In this document: piece after piece, positions 2,627-48,443 of the stretch | How the letters are laid out: each line of letters begins with the position of its first letter | How positions within the stretch are numbered: position 1 is the first letter of the stretch | Virus record (IMG/VR): IMGVR_UViG_3300037067_004891 | Coordinates: 160,001 to 224,000 of that record | From: a virus | Lineage: Duplodnaviria > Caudoviricetes | Direction: 5' to 3' (one strand) | Length of the DNA: 64,000 nucleotides | The notes under the pieces: model-generated | What the model saw: only the letters and a program-made list of their open reading frames with translations | Told to the model about the DNA's origin: nothing | Database searches by the model: none | Program-made: the position numbers and the translations under genes

Positions 2627-2845
2627 ATTTTGTTATATTCACCTCACCGATCTTATTGAATTTATCTTCCTATATACAGTTGTGTCAACCCTCATTTTTG
2701 TGTGTTCACTCACTCAATTGTTAATGCCCCACCACTTGCAGCATGTTGTGTCAACCCTCATTTTTGTGTGTTCACTCACCTATTTACAACTCTTAAATCA
2801 TATTTTTCTGTTGTGTCAACCCTCATTTTTGTGTGTTCACTCACC
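2623..2845 (-). CRISPR. CRISPR-like array 1 (repeat A): 3 full repeats plus 1 decayed
   Basis: Repeat GGTGAGTGAACACACAAAAATGAGGGTTGACACAAC (minus strand) at 2810-2845, 2745-2780, 2679-2714 (1 mismatch); decayed copy ~2623-2648; spacers 29, 30, 30 nt. Confidence 0.85.
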
Positions 2846-3111
2846 ATACCCTTAATTAATTCATTAATAGTTAGATCATTAAGATGATATTTCGTTTCTA
2901 AAACTTGATAAATTTTATAATAATTATAAAATAAAACATATGTTTTCTTATCGTAACTAAAATAAACAACGTCATTTTTCTTTCCAACTAAAATATCAGA
3001 ATTATACTTAGAAGCAAACCACTCAGTATCTTTAATTATTTGCCATAAAAAATACTTAGGACTTCTCGCTTCTTGTATCTTTCGAATTACATCTAATATA
3101 TCTTCTTCCAT
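2776..3111 (-). CDS. array-fused cassette protein, copy 1
   Basis: MEEDILDVIRKIQEARSPKYFLWQ...GMVSEHTKMRVDTT+spacer; start set at 3111 by comparison with paralogs. Confidence 0.8.
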   Translation of the reverse strand: MEEDILDVIRKIQEARSPKYFLWQIIKDTEWFASKYNSDILVGKKNDVVYFSYDKKTYVLFYNYYKIYQVLETKYHLNDLTINELIKGMVSEHTKMRVDTTEKYDLRVVNR

Positions 3112-3323: not shown

Positions 3324-4421
3324 TCAATTCCATTCTATTATATTTTTTGATTCATCAGATTTACTAATCAAAACGTGTTTAATATTTAAAATGTTACTTA
3401 TTTTCCGAATGAAGTCATCTTCATTTGAAGATACTATTATTTCATTTTTATATGTAAATCTATATTCATCTACAATGTGGTCAAGACATGTAATAACGAG
3501 TGTTTTGTTCAAACAAAACCGAATATAAGGGTCTTTATTTATACTATATAATAATAAATCCAAATTAAGTAATGCCCGTCTAAATTCTCCTTGGTGTGGA
3601 TGCGTTACATTGGTTTCATTTGGGTTTATTAAAATATTATGTGGTATATCCTCACCGACCATAGCACCATTACCATGTCTTGTTTGATAAGCTCTTGTAA
3701 TTAAATATAATTCTGGATTAATTCCAGTATCCAATATATTTTTAGTACTTACACAACTTCTGGTGACATGTGGAAAAAACCCTATATTTGGGTCTAATAA
3801 TAACCCCTGAGAACCTTCAAAAATATAATTTCCATAATAAGGAAAATCATATGCAGGTTTTATATTTTTAGAAGATATGATTCTTTCTACACTTTGAAAA
3901 AATCTATCTAAACTATTGTTAATTTTTAAATTGTAGAACTTTTTTATTTCATCTAATTTTATTCTCAGTACTGGTTCATAATATAAATCTCCGAATTGTA
4001 AAGAATAAAACTTTTCTTCTCTGTTTATTGTTGCACCAACACCCACGCCAACACTACCATGTTGGTTAATTTTCTCTAATTCTTGATTATAATAAATATC
4101 AAATGGTGTTGTAATAGGGCATCTTTCATCAATATATAATAATGGTTGAACTCCTTTTTCAATTAAAATATCTAATTCTTTTATTAGTCCAACTGGGTCA
4201 ACAGTACAACATTTCGCCCAATACGATGGAACACCACGTAATGTACCAGAACCAAAATTTGAAAAGACGTGTCTTATACCATTTAAAAATACAGTATGAC
4301 CACATTGCTGACCACCTGAAAATCTAATAACTAAAGTATTATTAGAATGGGAACAAAGGTAATCGGTTGTTATGCCCTTACCCTCATCCCCATACCCTAT
4401 GCCAATTACAGCTCTATTCAT
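3324..4421 (-). CDS. purA: adenylosuccinate synthetase-like protein (PurA family)
   Basis: GYGDEGKG P-loop, GGQQCGHT, EGSQG, YQTRHGNG motifs. Confidence 0.85.
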   Translation of the reverse strand: MNRAVIGIGYGDEGKGITTDYLCSHSNNTLVIRFSGGQQCGHTVFLNGIRHVFSNFGSGTLRGVPSYWAKCCTVDPVGLIKELDILIEKGVQPLLYIDERCPITTPFDIYYNQELEKINQHGSVGVGVGATINREEKFYSLQFGDLYYEPVLRIKLDEIKKFYNLKINNSLDRFFQSVERIISSKNIKPAYDFPYYGNYIFEGSQGLLLDPNIGFFPHVTRSCVSTKNILDTGINPELYLITRAYQTRHGNGAMVGEDIPHNILINPNETNVTHPHQGEFRRALLNLDLLLYSINKDPYIRFCLNKTLVITCLDHIVDEYRFTYKNEIIVSSNEDDFIRKISNILNIKHVLISKSDESKNIIEWN

Positions 4422-10312: not shown

Positions 10313-11821
10313 ATGAGAAACTATAAATCATTCATCGCAGAAAACTTAGAATCAGAAGATAATAAGAAAGACGTTAAACTTTCATATGAAATAAATACAT
10401 TCACTATTGAGTTGTCTCAAAATAAGCTTTCTACGTTTGATAAGTTAATGAAAAATATTAAACGTTATTCAAAACAGATTGGTCTGCCTATGCCAGTCAT
10501 AAAAGATTTACCACCAAAAAAATATTATATTTTATCTAAGATTTATTTAGATAACAATTTAGATAACAAAACACATTTTTATAAAGAAACAATAACTGAT
10601 GATGATAAAAAAGCATCAAATTTTAAAACCGAATACATAAAGAAATCACCTAAAACAAATTTTCAAATATTTTCAACTGAGGTATATTCAAAAACAATTG
10701 AATTAGTTGCCGAAATAAAACCACAAGATGAATGGGTTATTTTAGGTGTTATTAACCACATTGATGGTATTATAAAAGCTGCACCTAATCAACAAATACC
10801 TTTTGATTTAATACCTTCTGATTTACACAATTCTTGTACTTGTGACCATTGTAATACAGAAAGAACCCGCAACAAGACCGTCTATATTAAAAATTTAAAA
10901 GATGGTAAAACCATTAGAGTTGGTGGTTCATGTATCAAATACTATCTTGGTTATAAATATGAACACATTTTGGATTATTTATCGGATTTACAGTTGTTTG
11001 TAACCAGCTTCAATAATATGTCAAATGATGTGTATGATGAATTTGACGGTTATAATGGTGATAGATATATTCAAACGCAAGTAGATATCAAAGATTGTGT
11101 TAGATATTTCTCTTGGTATATTAAAAAACACGGTTATATATCTAAAAGCGGTGCTGAGAAAATAAATAGCAAAAAAATAGAAAAAGCTACTGGTGATATA
11201 GAACCTAAATTAGTATCATCAACTGGTGGTGTTGTATCAAATACATTATCATTTGTGAACTCTCCCCCACCTGAAAATGATTATGTATTATGGGCAGAAG
11301 AAGTTGCTATGGTAAATGATGTTATATCAAAAGAAAATGATGATTTTTATAATAAATTAGTTCCTTTTGTTGAAGCTGAATATAAAACCAATAATTTTCT
11401 TTTCAATATACATAACTTTATAAACAAGGGTGTTGTTGATTTAAAATGTATTAGTTACATCATTGGAGCTTGCTCAATGCTCCAAGGTAAAATATCTTAT
11501 GAAGAATTTAAAAATAAATCAAAAGAAGAACAGAAAGAATCGAATTGGGTTGGTAATGTTGGTGAAAAAGTTAAATTAGAAAACTTAACCATTAAACATT
11601 TTTCTGGTTTCGAGGGTCAGTGGGGTTGGACTTCCATTTTCAAGTTAGAAGATGAAAATGGAAATCAATACACCAGATTCGGTGATATTCCTAAGAAATT
11701 CTTAGTGTCTGGCGAAGAAGTCATCGTTGGAAGTGTTGTTAGTTTTACGGCTGAAATTAAGAAACACGATACTTATAATAACAATAAGCAAACAGTCTTA
11801 GGTAGATTGTTCAAAGTATAA
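10313..11821 (+). CDS. putative internal head protein with Zn-binding motif and C-terminal OB-like domain
   Basis: N-terminus MRNYKSFIAE; CDHC...GGSC; beta-rich C-terminus. Confidence 0.55.
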   Translation: MRNYKSFIAENLESEDNKKDVKLSYEINTFTIELSQNKLSTFDKLMKNIKRYSKQIGLPMPVIKDLPPKKYYILSKIYLDNNLDNKTHFYKETITDDDKKASNFKTEYIKKSPKTNFQIFSTEVYSKTIELVAEIKPQDEWVILGVINHIDGIIKAAPNQQIPFDLIPSDLHNSCTCDHCNTERTRNKTVYIKNLKDGKTIRVGGSCIKYYLGYKYEHILDYLSDLQLFVTSFNNMSNDVYDEFDGYNGDRYIQTQVDIKDCVRYFSWYIKKHGYISKSGAEKINSKKIEKATGDIEPKLVSSTGGVVSNTLSFVNSPPPENDYVLWAEEVAMVNDVISKENDDFYNKLVPFVEAEYKTNNFLFNIHNFINKGVVDLKCISYIIGACSMLQGKISYEEFKNKSKEEQKESNWVGNVGEKVKLENLTIKHFSGFEGQWGWTSIFKLEDENGNQYTRFGDIPKKFLVSGEEVIVGSVVSFTAEIKKHDTYNNNKQTVLGRLFKV

Positions 11822-12189: not shown

Positions 12190-15100
12190 GTGAAGAATCT
12201 CAGATTTTACAATAAAGAGGGTTATCCTTACAACTTCCAATATAATGACGATACTGAAAAATGGGAAGGTAAAATGTTATTCGACCCAAATAGTAGCGAT
12301 TTATATAAAACAATAGGTATCTATTTATTTGAACATGTAGAACCGATCTCGTTTGCTGATTATTTCAATTTCAACAAATTTGAAATTTACAATGATAGTG
12401 GAATAATATTCAAGGGATCGACAAAACAAGGTTTAAATATCGAAAATATTCAAAAAACTAATAATTCATCAGCATTTAAAACAAAATGGATAAAGGGTAA
12501 AGGATTTCATCAGATATTTCCTGAAGGAACGGTTGTTAGATTCGTGTTAAGTGGCGCAAATTATACAGATTTCGCAGATGACTTATATTTTAATGTATTG
12601 GAAACCCGAAAAAATGAAATATTAGTTCAAACACAAACCACGAATGATATATTTGCAGCATTCACATACACATCTGGAAAAATATACAGTTGCGATGTTA
12701 TAAAATACCCAGATTATAATCAAGGATATGGTGCAATGTTTAGTTCAAAAATATATGTAGGTAAACAACTATCCGTAGTAAATTCAGATAAAAATTCAGG
12801 TGTAGTTGAAGTTAAAGATTATGAGGTCTTAAAAAGAAATATATATGATTTCGAATTATCAGGAACTACTAATGATAAATTAAATCTTGAAATTACATTA
12901 TTAACAGATAGAATTTTATTACACAATGGTGTTGTGAATATTATTGGAAACAAATTCATATTTAGTCAACCATTTGGTGATACTTTTAATATTGGACAAA
13001 ATATAATATTTGAAGATTATAATGGAAACCAATTATTAAACGGATATCAATATACAATCACATCAATATCGGATAACATCTCGGTCAAAACTGGAGTAAA
13101 TTTAGAATTCTTTGAATATTATGATGAAAACACAACGGACGAAACTGAATATTATATTAGAACAACATCAACACTCAATGTTCAGTTAGTAGCAAATGAT
13201 ATAATATACTTCACTGGTGCATCTTTAAATATCCAAAAGGATTTCAAAGTTTTATACACTTATCAAGAAGATGGTTATACATATATTCAACTCGAACAAC
13301 ATGTTCATGAAGAAAATGTGACAAACATGTCAATTGTAAAACGATTAAGATTTTATGAATATTTTACTTTAGATGCTTCTGGAATACCACTCACTCAAAC
13401 AATTGATGGCAATTGTTTTTTAACAACAAATATTTTAAACTATAAACAAGACATTATACCCGCAGCATCAGGTTATACTACTTATCATGAAACAATAAAT
13501 GCTTTTGTAAAAAATTTTAATAACGATTTAAATAAACTTGGTATCAATTCATATCTGTTAAATGATAAACTAATAATTGAAGGATTGTATGATTATACAT
13601 ATGCGCCATATTTCACAGTTACTCTGTATTTAGAAAATGATGGAGTAAATGTTGGAACAATTCCAAATCAAAATACATATTCATCTGCATCTGTTTCAGA
13701 TATACATTATATATTCACCGAAGAAAAAATATACAATGAAAAAATTTATTTATATGAAACAAATAAATTATCAAGTAATTATAACGAAGAAATAATATTT
13801 GATTTATATAATGATGTTTTAGATTACGGTTTTAATTTAACTTTAAACGATGTAGAATATTTCATTAATTACCAAGATAGTACTGGAACAACAAACAACA
13901 CACAAGAAACCATTAAAGACTTTGTTGAAAAATACTACACAGCATTGTATAACAAAGGAATAGAAATTTTTACTGGTACGACAGTGGATAACAAATTATA
14001 TATTCAAACATTATATCCAGATATTCAAATATTGAGTTTAAAAATTAAAGTAAACACATATTCTTCTTACAATATATTATATCAATCAGAAAACGAATTC
14101 AAAACAAATGGCATTATCATATCTGGTAATCAACTGGATATATCTATGATGGGTTCAACGAATTTATTTGATATTGGATTGTCAACTGGTATGATATTTT
14201 CAGTATCGGGTAGTTCATATAATGAAAACGAAAAAGAATATAACATATTAGGTTTAACTACTAATACAATACAATTGTCATATCAGGGTGCATTTTTTGA
14301 AGAAAATAATATTCTTTTAGATATTGATTCAAGAGAATATATTCGTAAGCCAAGACTATCATACAATAAAGATATTTATTATAGATTTTCGTGGATAACA
14401 AGCGATGAACATCTTATTGATGAATCTATATTTTTCTATGATATCTCTGGTGAACAACTTCAACCACCAAAAGATAATTCTGGAAACTATATTGAAAAAT
14501 TAAGATATATAGGACAAAAACCAATATGGGATTCAAAACAACAAAATATCATTAGATTAAATAAAGAACCAAATAATAAATTGGAATATATTTCAAACCC
14601 GAAATATCAACAAACAATATTTTCAGAATTAAACTTTTTATTACCTCAACTGGATTCTGATGATGATTTCAACTATCTACCAAAACCATTTGAAATTTTT
14701 ATTGGTTATAATACGTTAAACGAAGGTGTTAATTATAACATGATGAAAATAGAAAAGGTTGAAAGTGTTGTTTTTAGTGGCATAACGGGTGTTTCAGATA
14801 ATTTTTTTATTTTTAATACAGATGGAATAATTGAATTTAAATCAAACACTTTTGATAATTTTATAAATTTGGGATTTGAAATTGGACAACCAATACAAAT
14901 TAAAATGACCGATACTAACCCATATGATCAGTCATTATTCAAAAATTATGAAACATATACTATTATAGATATTTTAAAAAATAAAATAGTAGTTGATATT
15001 TCTAATATTAATGATTTCGTATATTTCAATTCGTCTGGTAAAACATTCAATTACTCAATTAATGTTCAACCAAAAGAAATTGGTCGTTTTTCTATTTATG

Positions 15101-16179
15101 GTGAAACTGAAATCGAAGATGAACGCTTTGATATAAATTTAAAAAACTTAGGTATCCGAATACACAAAGAAGAAGAAATGATTTTCAAAGATTCCGACTT
15201 AGAAGAAAATGGTATAGATTATTCTTTGTTAAATAGAAAACGAAAAGAAATGTTAATAATGTATCCACATATTTATAATTATATTGGTGCATATAAATCT
15301 CTTATGGGAGCTATTAATTTCTTTGGGTATAATGATTTGGAACTGTATGAATATTATAAAAATGTCAACTCCAGTTCTCCTTTTTATAAAAAATATATGA
15401 GAATATACATTCCTGATATATTTGATACCACAGTAGATGGATGGAATGAAGTCGATTTTATTAAAAATAAAGGAAATAGAAATAATTATGTCAAAAGTAA
15501 TTTATTCAATTTGACTTACAAAATAACTGATGAAGATGGTTACAATTTGAATTTATATTCATTAAAAGAAGTTCAAATAAAACTTCAAAAATTGAAATTA
15601 TGGTTAAGAGAAAACGTCATTCCACTTTCAACAAACATTATTGATATAACAGGCTCGGCTAAAATACCAAATACTAATTATTTAGTGCATGATACATCAA
15701 ACCAGATAAAAAAATTAAAAACTGAAAAAACAGGAATTGTTATAAATTTTAATCATATTACTACACTTAATTTCAGTACAAATTATTTATTTTCAATTTT
15801 TTTCTATACAGTTAGTGGGTTTATTCCAGATCATTTTGAATTGATAATAAAAACTTTCACCAAAAATGCAGAAGGAAAATTAATACCCGTTCAATATTTT
15901 AAAGTATTTAAAACAGACCTCGAACCATTTAATTTTAATATAGATAAAGATGTAGACCCATATATTTACATCGAAACATCATATTATGGTGATTATGGTG
16001 TTGGTTATCGTAATACTGAATTGTTTAATTTTGATGAACCAAAAAACTATTATTTAATCAATAATAATTTTAGATATAAATATTATCCAAGAATAAGTAC
16101 CAATGAAGGATACTATATTATAGATGATGATGGCAGTCTTTGGATTGTAGAAGAATATAGCAATGTTATAAATAGTTAA
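12190..16179 (+). CDS. large putative virion/baseplate structural protein (1329 aa)
   Basis: Long ORF, beta-rich composition, AATATATA motif upstream. Confidence 0.55.
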   Translation: MKNLRFYNKEGYPYNFQYNDDTEKWEGKMLFDPNSSDLYKTIGIYLFEHVEPISFADYFNFNKFEIYNDSGIIFKGSTKQGLNIENIQKTNNSSAFKTKWIKGKGFHQIFPEGTVVRFVLSGANYTDFADDLYFNVLETRKNEILVQTQTTNDIFAAFTYTSGKIYSCDVIKYPDYNQGYGAMFSSKIYVGKQLSVVNSDKNSGVVEVKDYEVLKRNIYDFELSGTTNDKLNLEITLLTDRILLHNGVVNIIGNKFIFSQPFGDTFNIGQNIIFEDYNGNQLLNGYQYTITSISDNISVKTGVNLEFFEYYDENTTDETEYYIRTTSTLNVQLVANDIIYFTGASLNIQKDFKVLYTYQEDGYTYIQLEQHVHEENVTNMSIVKRLRFYEYFTLDASGIPLTQTIDGNCFLTTNILNYKQDIIPAASGYTTYHETINAFVKNFNNDLNKLGINSYLLNDKLIIEGLYDYTYAPYFTVTLYLENDGVNVGTIPNQNTYSSASVSDIHYIFTEEKIYNEKIYLYETNKLSSNYNEEIIFDLYNDVLDYGFNLTLNDVEYFINYQDSTGTTNNTQETIKDFVEKYYTALYNKGIEIFTGTTVDNKLYIQTLYPDIQILSLKIKVNTYSSYNILYQSENEFKTNGIIISGNQLDISMMGSTNLFDIGLSTGMIFSVSGSSYNENEKEYNILGLTTNTIQLSYQGAFFEENNILLDIDSREYIRKPRLSYNKDIYYRFSWITSDEHLIDESIFFYDISGEQLQPPKDNSGNYIEKLRYIGQKPIWDSKQQNIIRLNKEPNNKLEYISNPKYQQTIFSELNFLLPQLDSDDDFNYLPKPFEIFIGYNTLNEGVNYNMMKIEKVESVVFSGITGVSDNFFIFNTDGIIEFKSNTFDNFINLGFEIGQPIQIKMTDTNPYDQSLFKNYETYTIIDILKNKIVVDISNINDFVYFNSSGKTFNYSINVQPKEIGRFSIYGETEIEDERFDINLKNLGIRIHKEEEMIFKDSDLEENGIDYSLLNRKRKEMLIMYPHIYNYIGAYKSLMGAINFFGYNDLELYEYYKNVNSSSPFYKKYMRIYIPDIFDTTVDGWNEVDFIKNKGNRNNYVKSNLFNLTYKITDEDGYNLNLYSLKEVQIKLQKLKLWLRENVIPLSTNIIDITGSAKIPNTNYLVHDTSNQIKKLKTEKTGIVINFNHITTLNFSTNYLFSIFFYTVSGFIPDHFELIIKTFTKNAEGKLIPVQYFKVFKTDLEPFNFNIDKDVDPYIYIETSYYGDYGVGYRNTELFNFDEPKNYYLINNNFRYKYYPRISTNEGYYIIDDDGSLWIVEEYSNVINS

Positions 16180-20020: not shown

Positions 20021-20596
20021 ATGAAACCACTCGATTACATTAAAAAATATAACCTTGATAAAGGTGTAAACTTCAGTCATAATGAATTCATTTCAGACTT
20101 GACAATGGATTTTATTACACTTTTAGAAGTGGGTAATGCACGAGGTAATATTAAAGGTTATAATAACGCTGTCAATGCTATTCGAATGAAATGGGATGGC
20201 ATAGATAAAAAAACGGCTGGTCAATTACCTGAAAAACTCTGGAAATATTTTTTCGCTTCTGTGATAGCTAAATTGCGTGAAGAATTATTTCCAGAAGAAA
20301 TGAAAAGGCAACGACAAGAAAAAGAGGATTGGAAAAGAAGAAAAGAAGAATGGGAGCGCATGGAAAGAGAACACGATTCTTGGATATTTGGTTTCTTTTT
20401 ACATTCTTTATTTTCTAAACAAAAACCAGTTTCCAGTTTCCAAGTCCTCGGACTAACATCTGACGCAACGCTGGAAGACGTGAAAACAGAATATCGTAAA
20501 TTATCAATGATTCACCATCCTGACAAAGGTGGTAACAGAGATAAATTCATTGAGCTAACTGAGGCTAAAAACAAATGTTTGGCATTTTTATCATAA
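20021..20596 (+). CDS. protein with C-terminal DnaJ (J) domain
   Basis: VLGL...VKTEYRKLSMIHHPDKGG. Confidence 0.85.
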   Translation: MKPLDYIKKYNLDKGVNFSHNEFISDLTMDFITLLEVGNARGNIKGYNNAVNAIRMKWDGIDKKTAGQLPEKLWKYFFASVIAKLREELFPEEMKRQRQEKEDWKRRKEEWERMEREHDSWIFGFFLHSLFSKQKPVSSFQVLGLTSDATLEDVKTEYRKLSMIHHPDKGGNRDKFIELTEAKNKCLAFLS

Positions 20597-20597
20597 A

Positions 20598-20984
20598 ATG
20601 GAAGAAGACATATTAGATATAATAAAAAAGATACAAGAAGCTCGTAATCCCAAATATTTTTTATGGCAAATAATTAAAGATACTGAGTGGTTTACTGCTA
20701 AGTATAATTCTAATATTTTAGTTGGAAAGAAAAATGATGTTGTTTATTTTAATTACGATAAGAAAAATCACACTTTATATTATGATTACAACAAAATATA
20801 CACAGTTTTAGAAACGAAATATCATCTTAACAGATTGAATGCTAATGAAATAATTGGTGGTATGGTGAGTGAACACACAAAAATGAGGGTTGACACAACC
20901 AAGGTGCAGGAGTACAGATATATAAGAATGGTGAGTGAACACACAAAAATGAGGGTTGACACAACTCATTTATATCAATTTTAA
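20598..20984 (+). CDS. array-fused cassette protein, copy 2
   Basis: Paralog of 2776-3111 and 48102-48443; reads through two repeats (VSEHTKMRVDTT twice). Confidence 0.8.
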   Translation: MEEDILDIIKKIQEARNPKYFLWQIIKDTEWFTAKYNSNILVGKKNDVVYFNYDKKNHTLYYDYNKIYTVLETKYHLNRLNANEIIGGMVSEHTKMRVDTTKVQEYRYIRMVSEHTKMRVDTTHLYQF

Positions 20985-21351
20985 TATCTTCCTTAGGTGA
21001 GTGAACACACAAAAATGAGGGTTGACACAACTATTCGCATTGCAATCGCCTTCTTCATGTTCGGTGAGTGAACACACAAAAATGAGGGTTGACACAACCA
21101 AGTATAAACCCGTTGTGCTTCATCATTAGGTGAGTGAACACACAAAAATGAGGGTTGACACAACTGGTGTATTGCGTTTCTCTATTATGTGGGCAGGTGA
21201 GTGAATATACAAAAATGAGGGTTGACACAACATTAGAGAGTTTATAAATGCGAAAAAAGGGGGTGAGTGAATATACAAAAATGAGGGTTGACACAACTGT
21301 TCTATGGTGGTTCAACAGACAACACATTGGTGAGTGAACACACAAAATGAG
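20864..21351 (+). CRISPR. CRISPR-like array 2 (repeat A): 7 full repeats plus 1 truncated
   Basis: Repeats start at 20864, 20930, 20996, 21063, 21129, 21196, 21262 (last two with GAATATAC variant); truncated copy at 21329; spacers 30,30,31,30,31,30,31 nt, all unique. Confidence 0.9.
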
Positions 21352-30599: not shown

Positions 30600-30744
30600 A
30601 TGGATGATACTTTTGATATAATAAAAAAGATACAGGAAGCCAGAAGCCCGAAATATTTTTTATGGCAAATAATTAAAGATATTGAGTGGGTTGATTCTAA
30701 GTATATTTCTAAATATTTATACAAAAAATGAGGGTTGACACAAC
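30600..30744 (+). pseudogene. internally deleted 4th copy of array-fused cassette
   Basis: MDDTFDIIKKIQEARSPKYFLWQIIKDIEW (43 aa, stop 30729-30731) joined to the 3' part of repeat A (30721-30744). Confidence 0.8.
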
Positions 30745-31009: not shown

Positions 31010-32281
31010 ATGATAGTAACATCATCAATGAAAATAAAAATAATACCAGTGGATGTAATATCCAAAAAGTGGATATTTGATATTTTTAATGTATCTTATA
31101 AGATTCAGAATCGGGCTTATGATATATCACGGATGTTACATCAATATCCAGTAATAATGTTACCTGTTACACCACCCAAATCACAAGTATATAATTTAAC
31201 TACTCAGGAATTTCCTAAAGTTATTACTACTTATCTGAGAGATTGGGTATATCAAGCAGAAAACAATTATAAAAGTGATGTTAAAGCTGGTTTATTATCA
31301 GGTAAAAGAAGTCCAAGACTGTATAAGAAATATGGTGCTACACGTTTTCAATTTTTGAAAAAATCTAATCCAAAATTAATAAAAGAAAATGGTGATTTTT
31401 TTATTCTTATTAACAGTAGAACAAATATCAAATTTAAAATACTATTCGACAAAAAAACAGGACATCTTAAAACTATGTTAAATAGATTTTTGGATTTAGA
31501 AAATAAAAAATACAATCTTAACTCAACTTTTTATATTAAAAAAACCAATAGAAACGAACTGATGTTAATCATATCCTATGAACAAGACATCCAAGGTTAT
31601 GTTGGCATAAATAATAGAGTGATGGGTATTGATATGGGTGTGAGAAGATTTATTTCTTTAAGAATAAATGACATACCAAGATATCAGAAGTCTATTCATA
31701 GTGAGAAATTAGTTCAACAGAAGTATGGTATTGCTATGAAAAATAAAAGGGTACAGGAATCTTCTGTATTAGCTAAATCAGGTCATGGTAGAACAAGAAA
31801 AATGCAGGTTTATAATAAAGTAAAAGATTCTGAAACATCATTTACTAATAATGTACTGGATAAATTATCAAAAGAAGTAATTGAATCTGCTGCAAAACGA
31901 AAAGTTCAACAGATAAACATGGAACGTCTTGATAAGAATTCTATGAAAGAACAAAATTCTTATCTTGGAAGATATTGGAGTGTTATGACTTTGATGAATC
32001 TAATTGAACAAAAAGCAACTAAACGTGGTATCATTGTTAAATATGTCGACCCTTATCATACAAGTCAGACTTGTTCATGCTGTGGTATGATTGGTGAAAG
32101 AAATGGTGCTGATTTTAAATGTATTAATGCTAAATGTGAAGAATTTAATAAAGATAAAGTAATTGATAGCGATTATAATGCTGCAATGAATATAGCTACA
32201 TCTGTTGATTATTTAGATGATGCAAGCAAAGGAAAATATTACTTAAATAAAACCAAAAAGGTTTTAGAAGAAGTTCTTTGA
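31010..32281 (+). CDS. cas12f: compact type V CRISPR effector, Cas12f-like (423 aa)
   Basis: RuvC motifs GIDMG, MERL, DSDYNAAMNIA; GHGR motif; TSQTCSCCG zinc finger; adjacent array. Confidence 0.8.
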   Translation: MIVTSSMKIKIIPVDVISKKWIFDIFNVSYKIQNRAYDISRMLHQYPVIMLPVTPPKSQVYNLTTQEFPKVITTYLRDWVYQAENNYKSDVKAGLLSGKRSPRLYKKYGATRFQFLKKSNPKLIKENGDFFILINSRTNIKFKILFDKKTGHLKTMLNRFLDLENKKYNLNSTFYIKKTNRNELMLIISYEQDIQGYVGINNRVMGIDMGVRRFISLRINDIPRYQKSIHSEKLVQQKYGIAMKNKRVQESSVLAKSGHGRTRKMQVYNKVKDSETSFTNNVLDKLSKEVIESAAKRKVQQINMERLDKNSMKEQNSYLGRYWSVMTLMNLIEQKATKRGIIVKYVDPYHTSQTCSCCGMIGERNGADFKCINAKCEEFNKDKVIDSDYNAAMNIATSVDYLDDASKGKYYLNKTKKVLEEVL

Positions 32282-32498
32282 AATAATATTGAGGTTTATT
32301 GGGTTGGACGTAAGTCCAGTAAATGAACTGCTATATACACTCACTAAAATGTATGGTGAGCGCAGGGATTAAAACCAGATAGTGAGGTCAGGAAATCAAA
32401 AATTGGATTTTTTAGAGTTAAATTTAAAAGATTACATATTTTTTTTCCACTAATACACTCACTAAATACCTTTATTTCAGTGGTTTAAAATGGGATAA
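32282..32498 (+). ncRNA. putative tracrRNA/scaffold RNA
   Basis: TTGGAC-GTAA-GTCCAG GNRA hairpin (32304-32319), CTCACT/GGTGAG stem, partial anti-repeat at 32466-32488. Confidence 0.55.
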
Positions 32499-32864
32499 GA
32501 TGGGTTAAACCACAAATTGAGAGGTATGCCCAGCTATACATCGCTTAACTTGGTAGTAAGAGCAAGATGGGTTAAACCACAAATTGAGAGGTATGCCCAG
32601 CTAAGGGACGAATACGATAAATCCACCTGTGATGGGTTAAACCACAAATTGAGAGGTATGCCCAGCTACCTTTTTTACATGCGTCAATTAAAGAAAGATG
32701 GGTTAAACCACAAATTGAGAGGTATGCCCAGCTTATAATTCATCATCATCATTTTTTAATTAGATGGGTTAAACCACAAATTGAGAGGTATGCCCAGCAG
32801 CCACAGTGAGGAATTTGTTTTTAACTATGATGGGTTAAACCACAAATTGAGAGGTATGCCCAGC
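32499..32864 (+). CRISPR. CRISPR array (repeat B): 6 repeats, 5 spacers
   Basis: GATGGGTTAAACCACAAATTGAGAGGTATGCCCAGC at 32499, 32566, 32631, 32697, 32763, 32829; spacers 31,29,30,30,30 nt; orientation inferred from the cas gene. Confidence 0.95.
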
Positions 32865-32896
32865 AAGTCACATGGACTTATAACACTAAGGAAAAT

Positions 32897-36590: not shown

Positions 36591-39500
36591 TTATGAACAC
36601 CTTGAACTTCCGCACGACATACATGTCATACACCCTTCTTTAAATTCAACATGTTCACTACCACATTCTTGACACACACCTTTTATTTTTTCACCATCTT
36701 TAATATATCGTTTAATAACTCTTTCAACACCAGCTTTCCAAGTGTTTAAATGAGCATCATTTAGGTTTAAAGAATTTATTAATTCATAAACATATATTAA
36801 AGGCATCGCATGTCGTAATAAACCACTCACCAATTTTGCATAGTTCCAAAATTCAGGGTTGAACGAATGATTTAATTCTAAATATGTTTTCTTTTCACCA
36901 TCGACATCAACATATTCCATATCATAACGAGAAATTTTCTTACCATCTTCACCATCTATTTTATTTTTAACAACCTCACATTCTTTAATAGTAGGTGAAA
37001 GAGAAGACAACCCGTTAACAAGACGACCAGTAAAGAGTTCGTATGGTCTACCATCTAATAAACCAACAACAGCAATCCACTTTTCAGAATCATTTTGGAA
37101 ACGGATAATATCAGCTTTTAAACGTTTAGGTCTTTTTGGTGCGTTGTGGTCTTTAAAAGCTTCAAGTTTTTCCTTTTCTTTTTGTTCTTTTTTAGAAACT
37201 AAAACACCTGACCGAGAACCGTCACGATAAACAGTCATCCCTTTACAACCACATCTCCAACCTGTTTCATATACTTTAGCCACAATTTCTTCAGTAACAT
37301 TATTTGGTAAATTAACGGTGACAGATATGGAATGGTCAACATGTTTTTGTAATCTTCCCTGCATTTCTACCTTTTCAAGCCAATCAACATCGTTAGCAGT
37401 CGCCTTAAAATAAGGTGATTCTTTAACGATTTCGTCCAATTGTTCTCTCTTCATATTTTTAACAGCGTCTATATCATAATTATTCACTCCAAGCCACATT
37501 TCAAATTTATGATGAAATACTGGGTACTCTTGCCATGATACACCTTCTTCGTCAATAAAGTCTACCCGAACATTTTTTTCTTGTGGATTAATTTTACGTC
37601 TACGCATATAAACTGGAAGAAAACATGGTTCAACACCCGATGTTGTTTGTGTCATTAAACTCACACTTCCAGTTGGAGCTATGGTTAATAAAGAAATATT
37701 CCTACGACCATATTTTACCATTTCATCATATAACAACAGGTCTTGTTCTTTTATCCTTAATATAAACGGGTTATTTATTTCACGTATAGAATCATATATT
37801 GGAAATGAACCTCTTTCATGTGCCATTATAACAGAAGAACGATATGCTTCTAATTTTAAAGTTTTTTGTATTTTTTCAGAAAATATAGTAGCTTCTTTTG
37901 TACCATATGTAAAATTAAGAGCTGCTAACATATCACCAAGACCTGTAATACCAAGACCTGTCCTACGTCCCATCTCAGCTTTTTTCTTAATTTCAACCCA
38001 AAGATTTTTTTCATAAATTTTTATAAATTCATCTTCTGGGTCATTATCTATTTTATTTAATATTTGGTCTATTTTTTCAAGTTCTAAATCAACAATGTCA
38101 TCCATCAATCTTTCAGCAAGAATTATATCTTTTTTAAATAAATCAAAATCAAAATATGCTTCTTTAGTAAATGGATTTTTTACATATCCAAAAAGATTTA
38201 AAGCTAATAAGCGACAACTATCCGATTTACAAAGTGTTATTTCTCCACAATTTCTCCCCAACACACTTACAGTTAACTGTTTACCACTTTTAGTTTTTTC
38301 TTGAAAACCCCCAAAATAAAAATTATGAACATCATCCACAGTACCATTATATACATCTTCATAACCATCTAATTCAACAGATATTACTTTATGATTATAT
38401 AATTCAGCTTCTTCTTTTAATTCATTAAAAGTATTAAAACCATGTTTAGTTTTTAATCTAAATGGGATATTTTGTATCTTACATTCATTTTCCCACTCTT
38501 TTAATAATGGTGTTCGTTCTAATTGAAATTGAAGTTTAGAGAATATTTTTATTTGTTTTTGTTTATTTTCATCTGATTTAATTTTAAAAATATCATTAAT
38601 AGTTTTAGTTCTTATAATATTTGCATCAGTTGTTCTATTCACATAAAGATTAGAACATGTGTTACTACAAAATGAATTTTCTCTTTGTTTATGTTCTACC
38701 CAAAATGGTTCACCACATTCTTCACAAATTTTCTCAACATAAACTTTATGATTTTCAATTTTTGTATTATAACCATTACTTAACATATTTTTATATGTTC
38801 TAACAAGTCGGGGGTCGTTATTTATAAATTCAATATTTAATTCTAATGCAGCCCACTTAGCCATAGATGTTATACCAGAATTAATTTCTTCCAATCTAAA
38901 TTTAGAAAAATACTTAGGTAATTTGTTTTCATTAGCATATTTACCCCAATCATCATTAGAAAACCTTCTTCCTAAAATTTTAGTTAATCTTAACGCATGG
39001 TCTTTTATATCATCTGATAATATATTACTATATTTGGAATTAGAAGAACCTTTATGTGATGCGAAATTAAACTTCCACTCATTTGACATTTTATGATAAG
39101 GATTTTTTTCACCAATCATATCAGTTTTGTGAAATTCGTCATGTTCATATTTGGTCATCATTAATAAATTATTAATATTGTTATTTAAACTATTATAATC
39201 TTTATGATGAATAACATTACCAGAATCGATTTTAATATTGTTTAGTTGTTCATATAAAAATCTATGTTCAGATACAGTAGATTTAAATTTGCCATTATTA
39301 ATCCATATATAATCACTACTTTTTGAGTTAGAATTTGGAAATAATTCTTCAAATGATGCAAACCATTTTGTTAAAATATTTAAACTATCACCACTTACTA
39401 AGTTCTTAGCTTCTTTAATATTTCCGTCTTTTAAAATAAATTTATGATTACCAGTTACTCTAACTGAATGACCACCTTGAATGTTAATTTTATATATTGG

Positions 39501-42041
39501 TTTATTAAACCCAGTAATACGAGGGTTACGCATAGTTTTAATAACTAATTTACTATTTACTTCATCCATAGCATAAACTGGTATGTCATTACCTTCATCA
39601 GCTAATTGCTTAATTGACACATATTGTCTACCATCAGCTACTGCAACCAAAGTTTCACCAACAATGCACGGATTAGTTGAAACTGTTTCAAATCCTAAAT
39701 CTGCATAACAATCAGGAATAGATTCTCTTAAAATAGTGTCCCAATATAAAATTCCTGGTTCTGCACTATTTGAAATTGCAAAACCATTTGATAATATAAA
39801 AGTATGATTATCATTAACTGTTAAATCATATACATAGTTATGTTTTGATTTATCAATTATATTTTTTTCTTTTACTTCTTCATATATAATATCATTATTG
39901 TAAATTATATCATCAATTTCTATATTTTTACATTTTAATTTTTTAATTAACACACTTTTTGAAATTCTTCCTGAATAATGTCTAAGTTTATTTTGGAATT
40001 TTTTATTTATAGGTATAAAAGTAGACCCCTTTTCTGTAATTAGATTTTCATTTAATATATTTTGTTTACATTTTAATATAAATTTTATGTATGTGTGAAA
40101 TAAAATATTATGTTCCTTACAGATATATAGTCTGTAACTGTTTTGTATATTACATAACTTTCCCATTATTATTTTTTTACCCATTTTTTCTTTTAAATGA
40201 ATAGAAGAACGAATACCAAATAACATTAATAATTTTTGAATATTATTAATTAAATGTAAATTAGATTGTGAAACATCTATCACACCGCTATTTATTGAAC
40301 CGTCCCCACTAAAAAAACCAGATAACAACGATGATATTTTATTTTTAGTTAGAGAAAAAACCCAATTTGGTAACATTTTTTGTCCATCAATATAATCAAA
40401 TCCAATAGATTTCATTAAATTACCTAATAACGTACTATTTATAGTTATGCAACAATAATTTTTATTAATTTTATAACTCCAATTACAATGAAATTTGTCA
40501 GATATATATTTTAATATATATCTGTAATCTTCAATCTCATTTTTATTAATATGTAATAATACCGAGTTACTATGATATGAACCTTCTGCCAGCCATAAAC
40601 CTAAAAAATTAGAAAATATATTATCAATAAAAAAATCTTTATTTATTAGAATTTCAGTGTTGTCATTTATATTTGGTTTTATTCTAATATTATTTATTTG
40701 AACTACATCTTTTATTTTTAAATATTCAAATATTGGTAACATTTTATAATGAATATAATTACTTGATTTATATCCACCATTTTTATTCATACCAAGTAAA
40801 TGTTTAATTTGTCCATTATTTAAAACATTTTCGAAATCATCAAATATTATAGAACTACCATTATTAAAATAATTTAAATCAATTTCAACCATATCCACAC
40901 CATCGTCATCTAATTTTGTTTTATCTGACAATAATATATAATCACCAATATTTACTTCATTAATAGGTATAGATAATATTTTAAAATCTCTTATTACATA
41001 TACTATATGGTCTTCAGTTGTCGATAATTCTTTTCTCGTTTTAGTTTTTAATGTTATAATATTTTTATTATTCTCATATTTTTGAAAATCTGTTATTGGT
41101 TTTCTTTCTATTCTTAATGTATTTAAATTTAAACTTATTGCTTCATATTTTCTATGTTTATCATGATTTTCAACTAAATCACCTATTTTAATAGTTTTGT
41201 AAATATCGTTTTCATATATAGGAATTTCAGTATCATACGGTACACACTTCCAAGCGTTAAAAATTATTTTATTCCATAATTTTTTAGCATCAATTTCTTG
41301 CTTTACTAATGGAATATCACTTACTAATGGGAATTGTTGAGAATATGAGGTTTCGTTTAAAACTGATTTCATAAATTCATCATCAATTTTAACTGAAATA
41401 TTTGCACCCGTAACTTTACCCTGTTCAAGTTTAGCATCAATAAATTTTTCTACATCTGGGTGTTTAATGGGCATTGAAAGAAGAAGTGCGCCCCTTCGTC
41501 CATCCTGCGCTACTTCACGGGTAGTGTTAGAATATCTTTCCATGAATGGAACAATACCTGTTGAAGTTAATGCACTGTTTTTAACGGGTGAACCTGTTGG
41601 TCTTATAAATGATAGGTCAAAACCGACTCCTGCTCGTCTTTTTTGAAGTTGAGCTGTTTCTTGGTCAAGTTTAAATATACCACCGTATGAATCAGAATCG
41701 TTTTCATTACCTATAACGAAACAATTACTAATACTAACAATTTGAAAGTTGTTACCGATACCAGACATTGGACTACCCTGTGGTATTACTCTTTCAAAAT
41801 TTTTTAATGAATCAAATATGACTTCTTCTGATATAGGATTTGAATATTTATTTTCAATACGTGCTAACTCACCAGACAACCTTCTATGCATATCATCTGG
41901 TGATTTTTCATATAAATTACCAAATGAATCTTTTAAACAATATTTATTAATCCATACTTCGGCTGCTAATTCATCGCCTTTGAAATATTTTAATGTTTCT
42001 GACAATACTTCTTCTCTTGTATATTTTACTAATTCTGACAT
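36591..42041 (-). CDS. nrdJ: class II (B12-dependent) ribonucleotide reductase with two inteins
   Basis: SNCF, RRGA, TNP/CGE, GLGITG, TIAPTGS, KGMTVYRDGSR, C-terminal zinc ribbon; ~850 aa after splicing. Confidence 0.93.
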   Translation of the reverse strand: MSELVKYTREEVLSETLKYFKGDELAAEVWINKYCLKDSFGNLYEKSPDDMHRRLSGELARIENKYSNPISEEVIFDSLKNFERVIPQGSPMSGIGNNFQIVSISNCFVIGNENDSDSYGGIFKLDQETAQLQKRRAGVGFDLSFIRPTGSPVKNSALTSTGIVPFMERYSNTTREVAQDGRRGALLLSMPIKHPDVEKFIDAKLEQGKVTGANISVKIDDEFMKSVLNETSYSQQFPLVSDIPLVKQEIDAKKLWNKIIFNAWKCVPYDTEIPIYENDIYKTIKIGDLVENHDKHRKYEAISLNLNTLRIERKPITDFQKYENNKNIITLKTKTRKELSTTEDHIVYVIRDFKILSIPINEVNIGDYILLSDKTKLDDDGVDMVEIDLNYFNNGSSIIFDDFENVLNNGQIKHLLGMNKNGGYKSSNYIHYKMLPIFEYLKIKDVVQINNIRIKPNINDNTEILINKDFFIDNIFSNFLGLWLAEGSYHSNSVLLHINKNEIEDYRYILKYISDKFHCNWSYKINKNYCCITINSTLLGNLMKSIGFDYIDGQKMLPNWVFSLTKNKISSLLSGFFSGDGSINSGVIDVSQSNLHLINNIQKLLMLFGIRSSIHLKEKMGKKIIMGKLCNIQNSYRLYICKEHNILFHTYIKFILKCKQNILNENLITEKGSTFIPINKKFQNKLRHYSGRISKSVLIKKLKCKNIEIDDIIYNNDIIYEEVKEKNIIDKSKHNYVYDLTVNDNHTFILSNGFAISNSAEPGILYWDTILRESIPDCYADLGFETVSTNPCIVGETLVAVADGRQYVSIKQLADEGNDIPVYAMDEVNSKLVIKTMRNPRITGFNKPIYKINIQGGHSVRVTGNHKFILKDGNIKEAKNLVSGDSLNILTKWFASFEELFPNSNSKSSDYIWINNGKFKSTVSEHRFLYEQLNNIKIDSGNVIHHKDYNSLNNNINNLLMMTKYEHDEFHKTDMIGEKNPYHKMSNEWKFNFASHKGSSNSKYSNILSDDIKDHALRLTKILGRRFSNDDWGKYANENKLPKYFSKFRLEEINSGITSMAKWAALELNIEFINNDPRLVRTYKNMLSNGYNTKIENHKVYVEKICEECGEPFWVEHKQRENSFCSNTCSNLYVNRTTDANIIRTKTINDIFKIKSDENKQKQIKIFSKLQFQLERTPLLKEWENECKIQNIPFRLKTKHGFNTFNELKEEAELYNHKVISVELDGYEDVYNGTVDDVHNFYFGGFQEKTKSGKQLTVSVLGRNCGEITLCKSDSCRLLALNLFGYVKNPFTKEAYFDFDLFKKDIILAERLMDDIVDLELEKIDQILNKIDNDPEDEFIKIYEKNLWVEIKKKAEMGRRTGLGITGLGDMLAALNFTYGTKEATIFSEKIQKTLKLEAYRSSVIMAHERGSFPIYDSIREINNPFILRIKEQDLLLYDEMVKYGRRNISLLTIAPTGSVSLMTQTTSGVEPCFLPVYMRRRKINPQEKNVRVDFIDEEGVSWQEYPVFHHKFEMWLGVNNYDIDAVKNMKREQLDEIVKESPYFKATANDVDWLEKVEMQGRLQKHVDHSISVTVNLPNNVTEEIVAKVYETGWRCGCKGMTVYRDGSRSGVLVSKKEQKEKEKLEAFKDHNAPKRPKRLKADIIRFQNDSEKWIAVVGLLDGRPYELFTGRLVNGLSSLSPTIKECEVVKNKIDGEDGKKISRYDMEYVDVDGEKKTYLELNHSFNPEFWNYAKLVSGLLRHAMPLIYVYELINSLNLNDAHLNTWKAGVERVIKRYIKDGEKIKGVCQECGSEHVEFKEGCMTCMSCGSSRCS
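38250..39668 (-). mobile_element. intein 2 with HNH endonuclease (473 aa) at the catalytic Cys
   Basis: TNP/CIVGET ... VYNGTV...GRN/CGE; IHHKDYNSLNNNINNL. Confidence 0.88.
39768..41246 (-). mobile_element. intein 1 with LAGLIDADG endonuclease (493 aa)
   Basis: AWK/CVPYDT ... VYDLTV...AISN/SAEPG; LGLWLAEG and LSGFFSGDG motifs. Confidence 0.88.
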
Positions 42042-47741: not shown

Positions 47742-48177
47742 ATTGTGTCAACCCTCATTTTTGTGTGTTCACTCACCAAAGAATATATTGGTGAAAAAAT
47801 GATTTGTGGTTGTGTCAACCCTCATTTTTGTGTGTTCACTCACCTATCGAATATTTCAACCACATCGGTTACATAAGTTGTGTCAACCCTCATTTTTGTG
47901 TGTTCACTCACCTTTTCCTCGCCATAAGGAAAGCAGATAATTAGTTGTGTCAACCCTCATTTTTGTGTGTTCACTCACCCAAAAATAAAAAAGATAGTAA
48001 AGTGGCTGGGTTGTGTCAACCCTCATTTTTGTGTGTTCACTCACCGTACAAAGTATGCAAAACCGCCCCATCCTGTTGTGTCAACCCTCATTTTTGTGTG
48101 TTCACTCACCTGAGTTGGGTGTAGTATATATAGTCGGGTCAGTTGTGTCAACCCTCATTTTTGTGTGTTCACTCACC
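47742..48177 (-). CRISPR. CRISPR-like array 3 (repeat A): 7 repeats, 6 spacers
   Basis: Repeats start at 47742 (1 mismatch), 47809, 47877, 47944, 48010, 48075, 48142; spacers 31,32,31,30,29,31 nt. Confidence 0.9.
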
Positions 48178-48443
48178 ATACCACCAATTATTTCATTAGC
48201 ATTCAATATGTTAAGGTGATATTTCGTTTCTAAAACTTGATATATTTTGTTGAAGTTATAATATAAAACATATTTTTTCTTATCGTAATTAAAATAAACA
48301 ACATCATTTTTCTTTCCAACTAAAATATTAGAATTATACTTAGCAGTAACCCACTCAGTATCTTTAATTATTTGCCATAAAAAATACTTAGGACTTCTCG
48401 CTTCTTGTATCTTTCGAATTATATCTGATATATCTTCTTCCAT
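48102..48443 (-). CDS. array-fused cassette protein, copy 3
   Basis: Paralog ending GMVSEHTKMRVDTT+spacer; TATATTTG promoter-like element at 48463-48470. Confidence 0.8.
   Translation of the reverse strand: MEEDISDIIRKIQEARSPKYFLWQIIKDTEWVTAKYNSNILVGKKNDVVYFNYDKKKYVLYYNFNKIYQVLETKYHLNILNANEIIGGMVSEHTKMRVDTTDPTIYTTPNSGE

Follow-up and report, generated by a model that had tools for sequence, protein, structure and literature searches.

A 36-nt CRISPR repeat that appears to double as the coding end of a conserved small gene in a giant phage

In the genome of a giant phage, one 36-nt repeat appears to have two roles, serving as a CRISPR repeat and encoding the last 12–13 residues of a conserved protein. 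The small gene lacks a stop codon belonging to it, and the first CRISPR repeat of the adjoining array makes up its last 12–13 codons. CRISPR leaders are usually taken to be free of coding sequence, and repeats to act purely as signals in RNA or DNA. The explanation that we favor, and consider fairly probable, is a composite module in which the gene for a protein of about 101 residues takes the place of a non-coding leader, the end of that protein is encoded by the repeat, and the tail that follows, encoded by a spacer, is a by-product. Searches of a paper library for this layout and for phage CRISPR arrays turned up no account of a gene whose end is a CRISPR repeat.

The stretch of DNA analyzed here, referred to as the window, is 64,000 nt long and corresponds to bases 160001–224000 of a 421,673-bp virus record. 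The genome is that of the landfill jumbo phage of 421,673 bp with six CRISPR arrays reported by George et al. 2025 (PMC12607003). It has a GC content of about 27% and carries phage genes for a UvsX-like recombinase, an intein-bearing ribonucleotide reductase and a PurZ-like synthetase; its closest database relatives are uncultured huge phages of 636–735 kb, and its host is probably a member of the Bacteroidota. The completeness of the record according to CheckV is given as 59% in one source and as >95% in another. The large subunit of the ribonucleotide reductase (window 36591–42041, minus strand, 1816 aa) is split by HNH-type homing-endonuclease regions (inteins). An adenylosuccinate-synthetase homologue at window 3324–4421 (minus strand) has a PurZ-type enzyme as its top PHROG match, which hints at the presence of 2-aminoadenine in the phage DNA.

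Three arrays in the window, and others elsewhere in the genome, are built from a 36-nt repeat that in the sense of the gene reads GGTGAGTGAAC...GACACAAC. The window contains 17 occurrences of its 35-nt core, compared with 0 in shuffled sequences. The layout is the same at each array: an ORF of about 88 codons leads to an ATG whose G is the first base of the repeat, continues in frame through the repeat (MVSEHTKMRVDTT) and enters the first spacer. The small gene adjoins each array at the side where the repeats are intact.

The segment at 48075–48177, to which the original prediction referred, is made up of repeat 2, spacer 1 and repeat 1 of array 3, a cas-less array on the minus strand (47742–48177) that consists of seven 36-nt repeats and six spacers of 29–32 nt, with a single change in the repeat farthest from the gene. 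The ORF of the adjoining gene copy 3 (48102–48443, minus strand) begins with a body of 88 codons (48180–48443, MEEDISDII...NEIIGG), for which the ORF itself, the paralogues and an AlphaFold2 (AF2) fold speak. The Met codon and the gene-proximal repeat 1 follow at 48142–48179 (the 36-nt repeat alone at 48142–48177, minus strand) and read in frame as MVSEHTKMRVDT(T), a reading consistent with codon-like variation and with the AF2 model. The 31-nt spacer 1 (48111–48141, minus strand) encodes the tail DPTIYTTPNS, predicted to be disordered with pLDDT <50, and repeat 2 (48075–48110, minus strand) is entered out of frame (GE, then stop), its TGA at 48102–48104 ending the ORF.

Copy 2 of the gene (20598–20984, plus strand) crosses its first two repeats and the 30-nt spacer between them and stops in spacer 2; of the seven repeats in its array (20864–21297, plus strand), the two most gene-distal ones are variants, and a half-repeat remnant follows them. 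The tail of copy 1 (2776–3111, minus strand) is encoded by a 29-nt spacer and closed by the TGA in repeat 2, and the array of this copy (2679–2845, minus strand) comprises three repeats, of which the distal one is degenerate. A truncated copy at 30603–30744 (plus strand) consists of approximately the first 43 codons of the gene fused to the last 21 nt of the repeat. The original prediction had given the three ends of the full copies, and the spacer lengths of 29, 30 and 31 nt, exactly as found here: in copy 1, ...VDTT is followed by EKYDLRVVNR and a stop, in copy 3 by DPTIYTTPNSGE and a stop, and in copy 2, where the frame is kept, a second MVSEHTKMRVDTT is read and the stop lies in spacer 2 after HLYQF. 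The gene for a DnaJ-domain protein (window 20021–20596, plus strand) ends one base 5′ of the start of copy 2, and the two are probably co-transcribed; copies 1 and 3 have TAnnTTTG motifs upstream. We infer that the small-gene ORF is translated, and likewise infer the strand on which the arrays are transcribed.

The small gene is real and under purifying selection, since the genome contains seven full paralogues with pairwise dN/dS of 0.16–0.41 over the 88-codon body, the sole indel among them is 12 nt long and in frame, homologues occur in other metagenomes at 48–80% identity, and 312 clusters were matched at E ≤ 1e-3 in a profile search of 1.84 billion representatives. Besides the full paralogues, the genome holds a truncated copy and a single weak match that is stop-interrupted. 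Related megaphages carry more than 20 further loci, including 11 in the complete 640-kb genome G001 and 2 in the 676-kb genome G002, and nearly all relatives of the gene run through the repeat into a variable tail. Members with just 25–36% identity keep the C-terminal motif (M)V-x-E-x-(L/F)-K-x-x-V-x-T-(T/P); in distant members for which DNA was available, this motif is again encoded by the first of 2–3 exact 36-nt repeats with spacers of 30–32 nt. Scans of viral collections for distant subfamilies yielded few additional long contigs. For the function of the protein, Pfam, PHROGs and PADLOC gave no match, and Foldseek against the PDB returned nothing at E ≤ 0.001. A wider VIA-align comparison reached a best Z of 5.4, scattered over small nucleic-acid-binding and winged-helix-like domains, which was too weak for a fold assignment, and none was retained.

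Several lines of evidence speak for the repeat-coded residues being part of the protein. No stop codon precedes the repeat in any full-length close copy that was read. Among family representatives of ≤200 aa, the profile match extends to at least position 95 of 101 in 132 of 136, and a stop within two residues past the repeat-coded segment is seen in only 2 of the 74 representatives whose match reaches the end of that segment. Within the repeat, pN/pS, pooled over the 12–13 distinct first repeats found in the close family, was 0.35–0.36 in the gene frame versus 0.78 and 1.07 in the other frames; permutation of the columns of the repeat alignment gave a median of 0.77 (P = 0.049). The usual changes in the repeat leave the amino acid as it is (Val as GTT, GTG or GTA; His as CAC or CAT; Leu as TTG, CTG or TTA). 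This codon-like pattern is marginally significant and, because the sequences are related, suggestive rather than strong.

AF2 modeling of the small protein from a 27-sequence alignment gave a mean pLDDT of 83.7, with a helix at residues 79–94, a strand at residues 97–100 and a mean pLDDT of about 90 for residues 91–100; the spacer-coded tail, residues 104–113, fell below 50. On this model, the repeat-coded segment would be a structural part of the protein, supplying the end of the helix and the strand. The confidence of AF2 in the segment may in part reflect conservation imposed by CRISPR. Copies in which no multi-repeat array was detected still encode V-x-E-x-(F/L) at the position of the repeat.

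The arrays are genuine CRISPR arrays, with 3–8 exact 36-nt repeats and, over the 50 spacers collected, spacer lengths of 28–32 nt. Variant and degenerate repeats are confined to the gene-distal end. Judged by this pattern, the small gene sits at what is likely the acquisition end of the arrays, i.e., the non-degenerate one. The position of the leader is occupied by a gene under purifying selection and not by non-coding AT-rich DNA. Shared spacers, sought across related arrays as a mark of turnover, were absent between non-redundant arrays and occurred only in duplicate contigs. Four perfect protospacers were located in this genome, three for its own spacers and one for a spacer of another phage; G002 contains a further perfect one, and G001 contains one with 2 mismatches. 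The perfect matches of the genome's own spacers lie at genome positions 256664–256692, 338395–338423 and 184111–184141, and two of the three self-matching spacers are the newest (first) in their arrays, including that of copy 1 (window 2781–2809), whose match is the one at 256664–256692. All three are in sense orientation to the target ORF and have N-AAAA on the leader-distal flank; overall, 4 of 5 protospacer-matched spacers are sense to the target ORF. The other flank shows a weak N6-T-W-A when read from the other strand. An assignment of system type from PAM and strand was rejected, as only five protospacers were at hand and their flanks are ambiguous.

The arrays share the 36-nt repeat, the spacers of about 30 nt and a leader-distal ...ACAAC (GTTGT), recognized by eye, with VI-B and II-C arrays of Bacteroidota. 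According to Hoikkala et al. 2021 (PMC8092290), Bacteroidota II-C and VI-B repeats have a leader-distal motif in common, and in Flavobacterium columnare VI-B arrays that lack cas1/2 use the II-C integrase in trans; transcription of VI-B arrays starts at the leader and enters the array, and that of II-C arrays runs towards the leader. The repeats of loci L027 and L028 end in the same 12 nt as the repeat of Flavobacterium branchiophilum (PMC5395568, Table 4). As far as repeat sequence can tell, the shared motif ties the arrays to Bacteroidota II-C-type adaptation without naming an effector.

Searches of the genome for Cas9 (TIGR01865) and Cas1 (PF01867) gave no match, and neither did tblastn with the Cas9 of G001. 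PADLOC and Pfam, applied to a 1329-aa ORF (window 12190–16179, plus strand) and ten other large ORFs, revealed no effector except a Cas12f/TnpB-like gene, which is accompanied by a different repeat. That gene (window 31010–32281, plus strand, 423 aa; PADLOC Cas12f, 1.5e-62) has a six-copy array of a different 36-nt repeat on its 3′ side (approximately 32488–32865), and the truncated small-gene module lies just upstream of it. The 1329-aa ORF was without a match in Pfam, PHROGs, PADLOC and PDB sequences and without a HEPN-type motif. A scan of the genome's large ORFs for dual HEPN RxxxxH motifs found no ORF with two, and PADLOC gave no Cas13b match. No isolated anti-repeat was detected in the genome, the only hits being the truncated module and a decayed repeat. 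In two pattern scans of 185,579 species genomes for a host repeat, no array was found, just single chance matches. Rfam contained no CRISPR-DR or other credible match. RNAalifold with 16 repeat variants predicted no consensus structure on either strand, in contrast to Cas13b repeats; single-sequence folds of the repeat are slightly more stable in the sense of the gene (−3.4 vs. −2.5 kcal/mol), a difference that is not decisive. A leader-repeat RNA hairpin was sought at 17 loci, where pairing was no better than with shuffled leaders.

In G001, a Cas9 gene (TIGR01865, 2.5e-88) is located at L043 10684–14100 (minus strand), with an 11-repeat array upstream (14242–14949) and an anti-repeat just downstream (approximately 10602–10660, minus strand). 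The repeat that belongs to this Cas9 is also 36 nt long but is not that of the arrays analyzed here, and the anti-repeat, which matches the Cas9 repeat, shows no pairing with theirs as judged by eye. About 1.7 kb from this Cas9 locus is a truncated copy of the small gene.

Set against known systems, the arrays resemble the cas-less mini-arrays of huge phages (PMC12607003) in being short and scattered, in having no adjacent cas operon and in carrying spacers that match related phages or the phage itself. They differ from that description, which lists the arrays and makes no mention of a gene running into them, in that here the leader is a conserved protein gene. With the type VI-B arrays of F. 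columnare (PMC8092290), they share 36-nt repeats, spacers of about 30 nt, the lack of a nearby adaptation gene and the tolerance of self-matching spacers, whereas no Cas13b candidate, conserved repeat hairpin or leader-repeat hairpin was found here, and the leader is coding. As in II-C (Cas9) systems, the 36-nt repeat is unstructured, its leader-distal end is GTTGT and acquisition would take place at the leader-adjacent repeat; unlike in II-C systems, neither Cas9 nor an anti-repeat was found in the genome, both of which are present in the related G001.

In the composite module that we favor, the leader-proximal repeat of a cas-less, class-2-style array forms the last 12–13 codons of the gene, and whichever spacer comes first supplies the residues past the repeat. 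A stop codon could hardly become fixed: any earlier position would cut the fold short; one at the 3′ end of the repeat would change the conserved ...CACAAC motif, which the adaptation machinery would be expected to need; and past the motif there would be only a replaceable spacer. Since no stop could be fixed in or after the repeat, each acquisition at the gene-proximal repeat would replace the short disordered tail. Acquisition would be expected from a Bacteroidota II-C-type Cas1–Cas2 of the host acting in trans, as for the cas1/2-less VI-B arrays of F. columnare (PMC8092290). The tail would then end at a chance stop in the spacer or, where the length of the spacer is not a multiple of three, at the early TGAs of the next repeat. 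The partners for adaptation and interference are assumed, given that the genome record yielded no Cas1, Cas9 or Cas13-like gene.

Among 17 arrays, the tail ends at the TGA of repeat 2 in 6, at a TAG across the spacer–repeat boundary in 1, inside spacer 1 in 5 and after passing through repeat 2 in 5. The original prediction had also held that a new spacer or a repeat–repeat deletion would swap a short variable tail. This part is supported: in every array the gene lies at the non-degenerate end, where acquisition takes place, and the residues past ...VDTT would thus be replaced. The tail is probably tolerated as a by-product rather than serving as a device for diversity. The gene would be unable to own its stop, because its end is the repeat and what comes next is replaceable.

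One property of the repeat goes beyond what a by-product would call for. As originally predicted, the repeat is open in the frame of the gene and carries TGA in both other frames, at repeat positions 3 and 21 in one and at positions 7 and 28 in the other. An open gene frame together with stops in both off-frames is found in all 12 distinct first repeats of the close family, which are related by descent, compared with 17% of composition-matched shuffles; stops in both off-frames alone occur in 31% of such shuffles. Selection for ribosome release, not required by the by-product model, could account for these stops and for the use of the GTG and AGT codons from which they arise. This would fit a translation-coupled control, in line with the second idea of the original prediction that translation controls array processing. 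In this alternative, to which we assign a minor share of the probability, ribosomes on repeat 1 keep it unfolded or occupied, so that no guide-less extraneous crRNA is made or integration is modulated, and the TGAs of the next repeat release them.

Migur et al. 2026 (PMC13187072) showed that in guide-repeat systems (VI-B, II-A) the first repeat yields extraneous crRNA, which is normally blocked by a leader-repeat hairpin. If the present arrays belong to the guide-repeat kind, the failure to find such a hairpin at the 17 loci means that another block on the first repeat would be needed. The liability of the first repeat would then be the same as in those systems, and any neutralizer here would, by analogy, be translation and not an RNA hairpin. 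That no relative was found with a stop before the repeat also agrees with this idea. Against it, 9 of the 17 first spacers are 30 nt long and keep the frame, and repeat 2 is read through in 5 of the 17 arrays. Moreover, the off-frame stops are not kept in distant relatives: in L071 one off-frame is without a stop, and most L077 repeats have none. The idea would fail altogether if the arrays were II-C-like, for crRNAs would then come from the opposite strand.

It is less likely still, and in our judgment quite improbable, that the arrays are accidental, having arisen where the 3′ end of an unrelated gene resembles a host repeat and was hit off-target by the host integrase, leaving non-functional scars. 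Such an origin would account for the lack of a detected effector or cas gene for these arrays in the genome, for the single decayed repeat that follows some copies (genome 23267–23530; L029, L031, L038), for the decayed repeat–spacer units that persist as linkers in fused ORFs and for the three spacers that match the phage's own genes. It is difficult to reconcile with arrays of up to 8 identical repeats at 5–6 places in this genome and 11 in G001, or with a layout kept across 312 clusters that have diverged to 25–36% identity. The repeats are, in addition, identical within an array and different between arrays, as in active arrays.

The fused ORFs come from another phage lineage. On the 148.5-kb contig L077 (6001–8283), five tandem small-protein domains form one ORF of 760 aa (P0019) with no internal stop; each domain is followed by 1–3 decayed repeat–spacer units, every unit being exactly 66 nt and open. 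Shorter fused versions have three modules (P0022) or two (P0029). Open fused ORFs such as P0019, with its five modules and 760 aa, are hard to credit to chance and hint that read-through can be selected.

The original prediction went further and proposed that the array might be a cassette store serving to diversify the protein, here at a functional C-terminal tail. We regard this as very unlikely, although several observations are in its favor. The tails differ in all 23 non-redundant loci that were read, and the fused ORFs stay open across many spacers. The residues EKYDLRVVN of the copy 1 tail are an in-frame 9-residue piece of another phage protein, encoded at genome 256629–257837, which we attribute to coincidence of frame. 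In-frame stops in spacers are depleted, occurring in 13 of 50 spacers versus an expectation of 23.4 ± 3.4 from mononucleotide shuffling. The depletion does not, however, single out spacers that are read as tails: it is as marked in internal spacers, which are not translated in that frame (8 of 33), as in first spacers (5 of 17, versus 8.3 ± 2.0 in shuffles; P = 0.08). The other sense frames contain stops in 16 and 19 of 50 spacers, and the antisense frames in 18–22 of 50. Because the depletion extends to internal spacers and to other sense frames, it reflects the origin of the spacers, mostly from coding DNA, and not selection on the tail.

Other properties of the tails point in the same direction. 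The frame-keeping length of 30 nt is found in 27 of 50 spacers overall and in 9 of 17 at the first position; spacer length is thus biased neither for nor against read-through. The tails span 4–33 residues, with a family-wide median of 13, share no motif and are predicted to be disordered; by our estimate, their lengths are what random termination would be expected to produce. Finally, only the first spacer is expressed as protein, and the others could be used only after deletions. The weakest alternative, in which the ORF arose by chance within a conserved non-coding leader and is not translated, can be taken as nearly refuted: CRISPR leaders are conserved among the arrays of one genome and no protein family library matches the ORF, but its dN/dS of 0.16–0.41, its confident AF2 fold, a frame of 88–101 codons that is open at 27% GC in all full-length copies and in distant relatives, and a 12-nt in-frame indel as the only one among the paralogues are not those of non-coding DNA.

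Together, these results describe a module in which, under the composite explanation, the same bases would be shaped both by selection on a protein and by recognition by Cas proteins and integrase, and each event of immune memory would edit the end of a protein. A bolder reading, to which we give a rather low probability, is that the overlap is functional, the small protein being a novel factor associated with the arrays, in co-evolution with the repeat from which its own C-terminus is read, and the translation of repeat 1 suppressing extraneous crRNA or gating integration; if true, it would be a ribosome-based counterpart to the leader-repeat hairpin of Cas13 systems. For annotation, the finding means that hundreds of "hypothetical proteins" reported by gene callers carry tails that are in fact spacers. 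The module may also serve as a test bed for the tolerance of the adaptation machinery to coding constraint, for translation as a possible stand-in for the RNA structures that silence the first repeat, and for the way in which giant phages without cas genes maintain libraries of guide RNAs.
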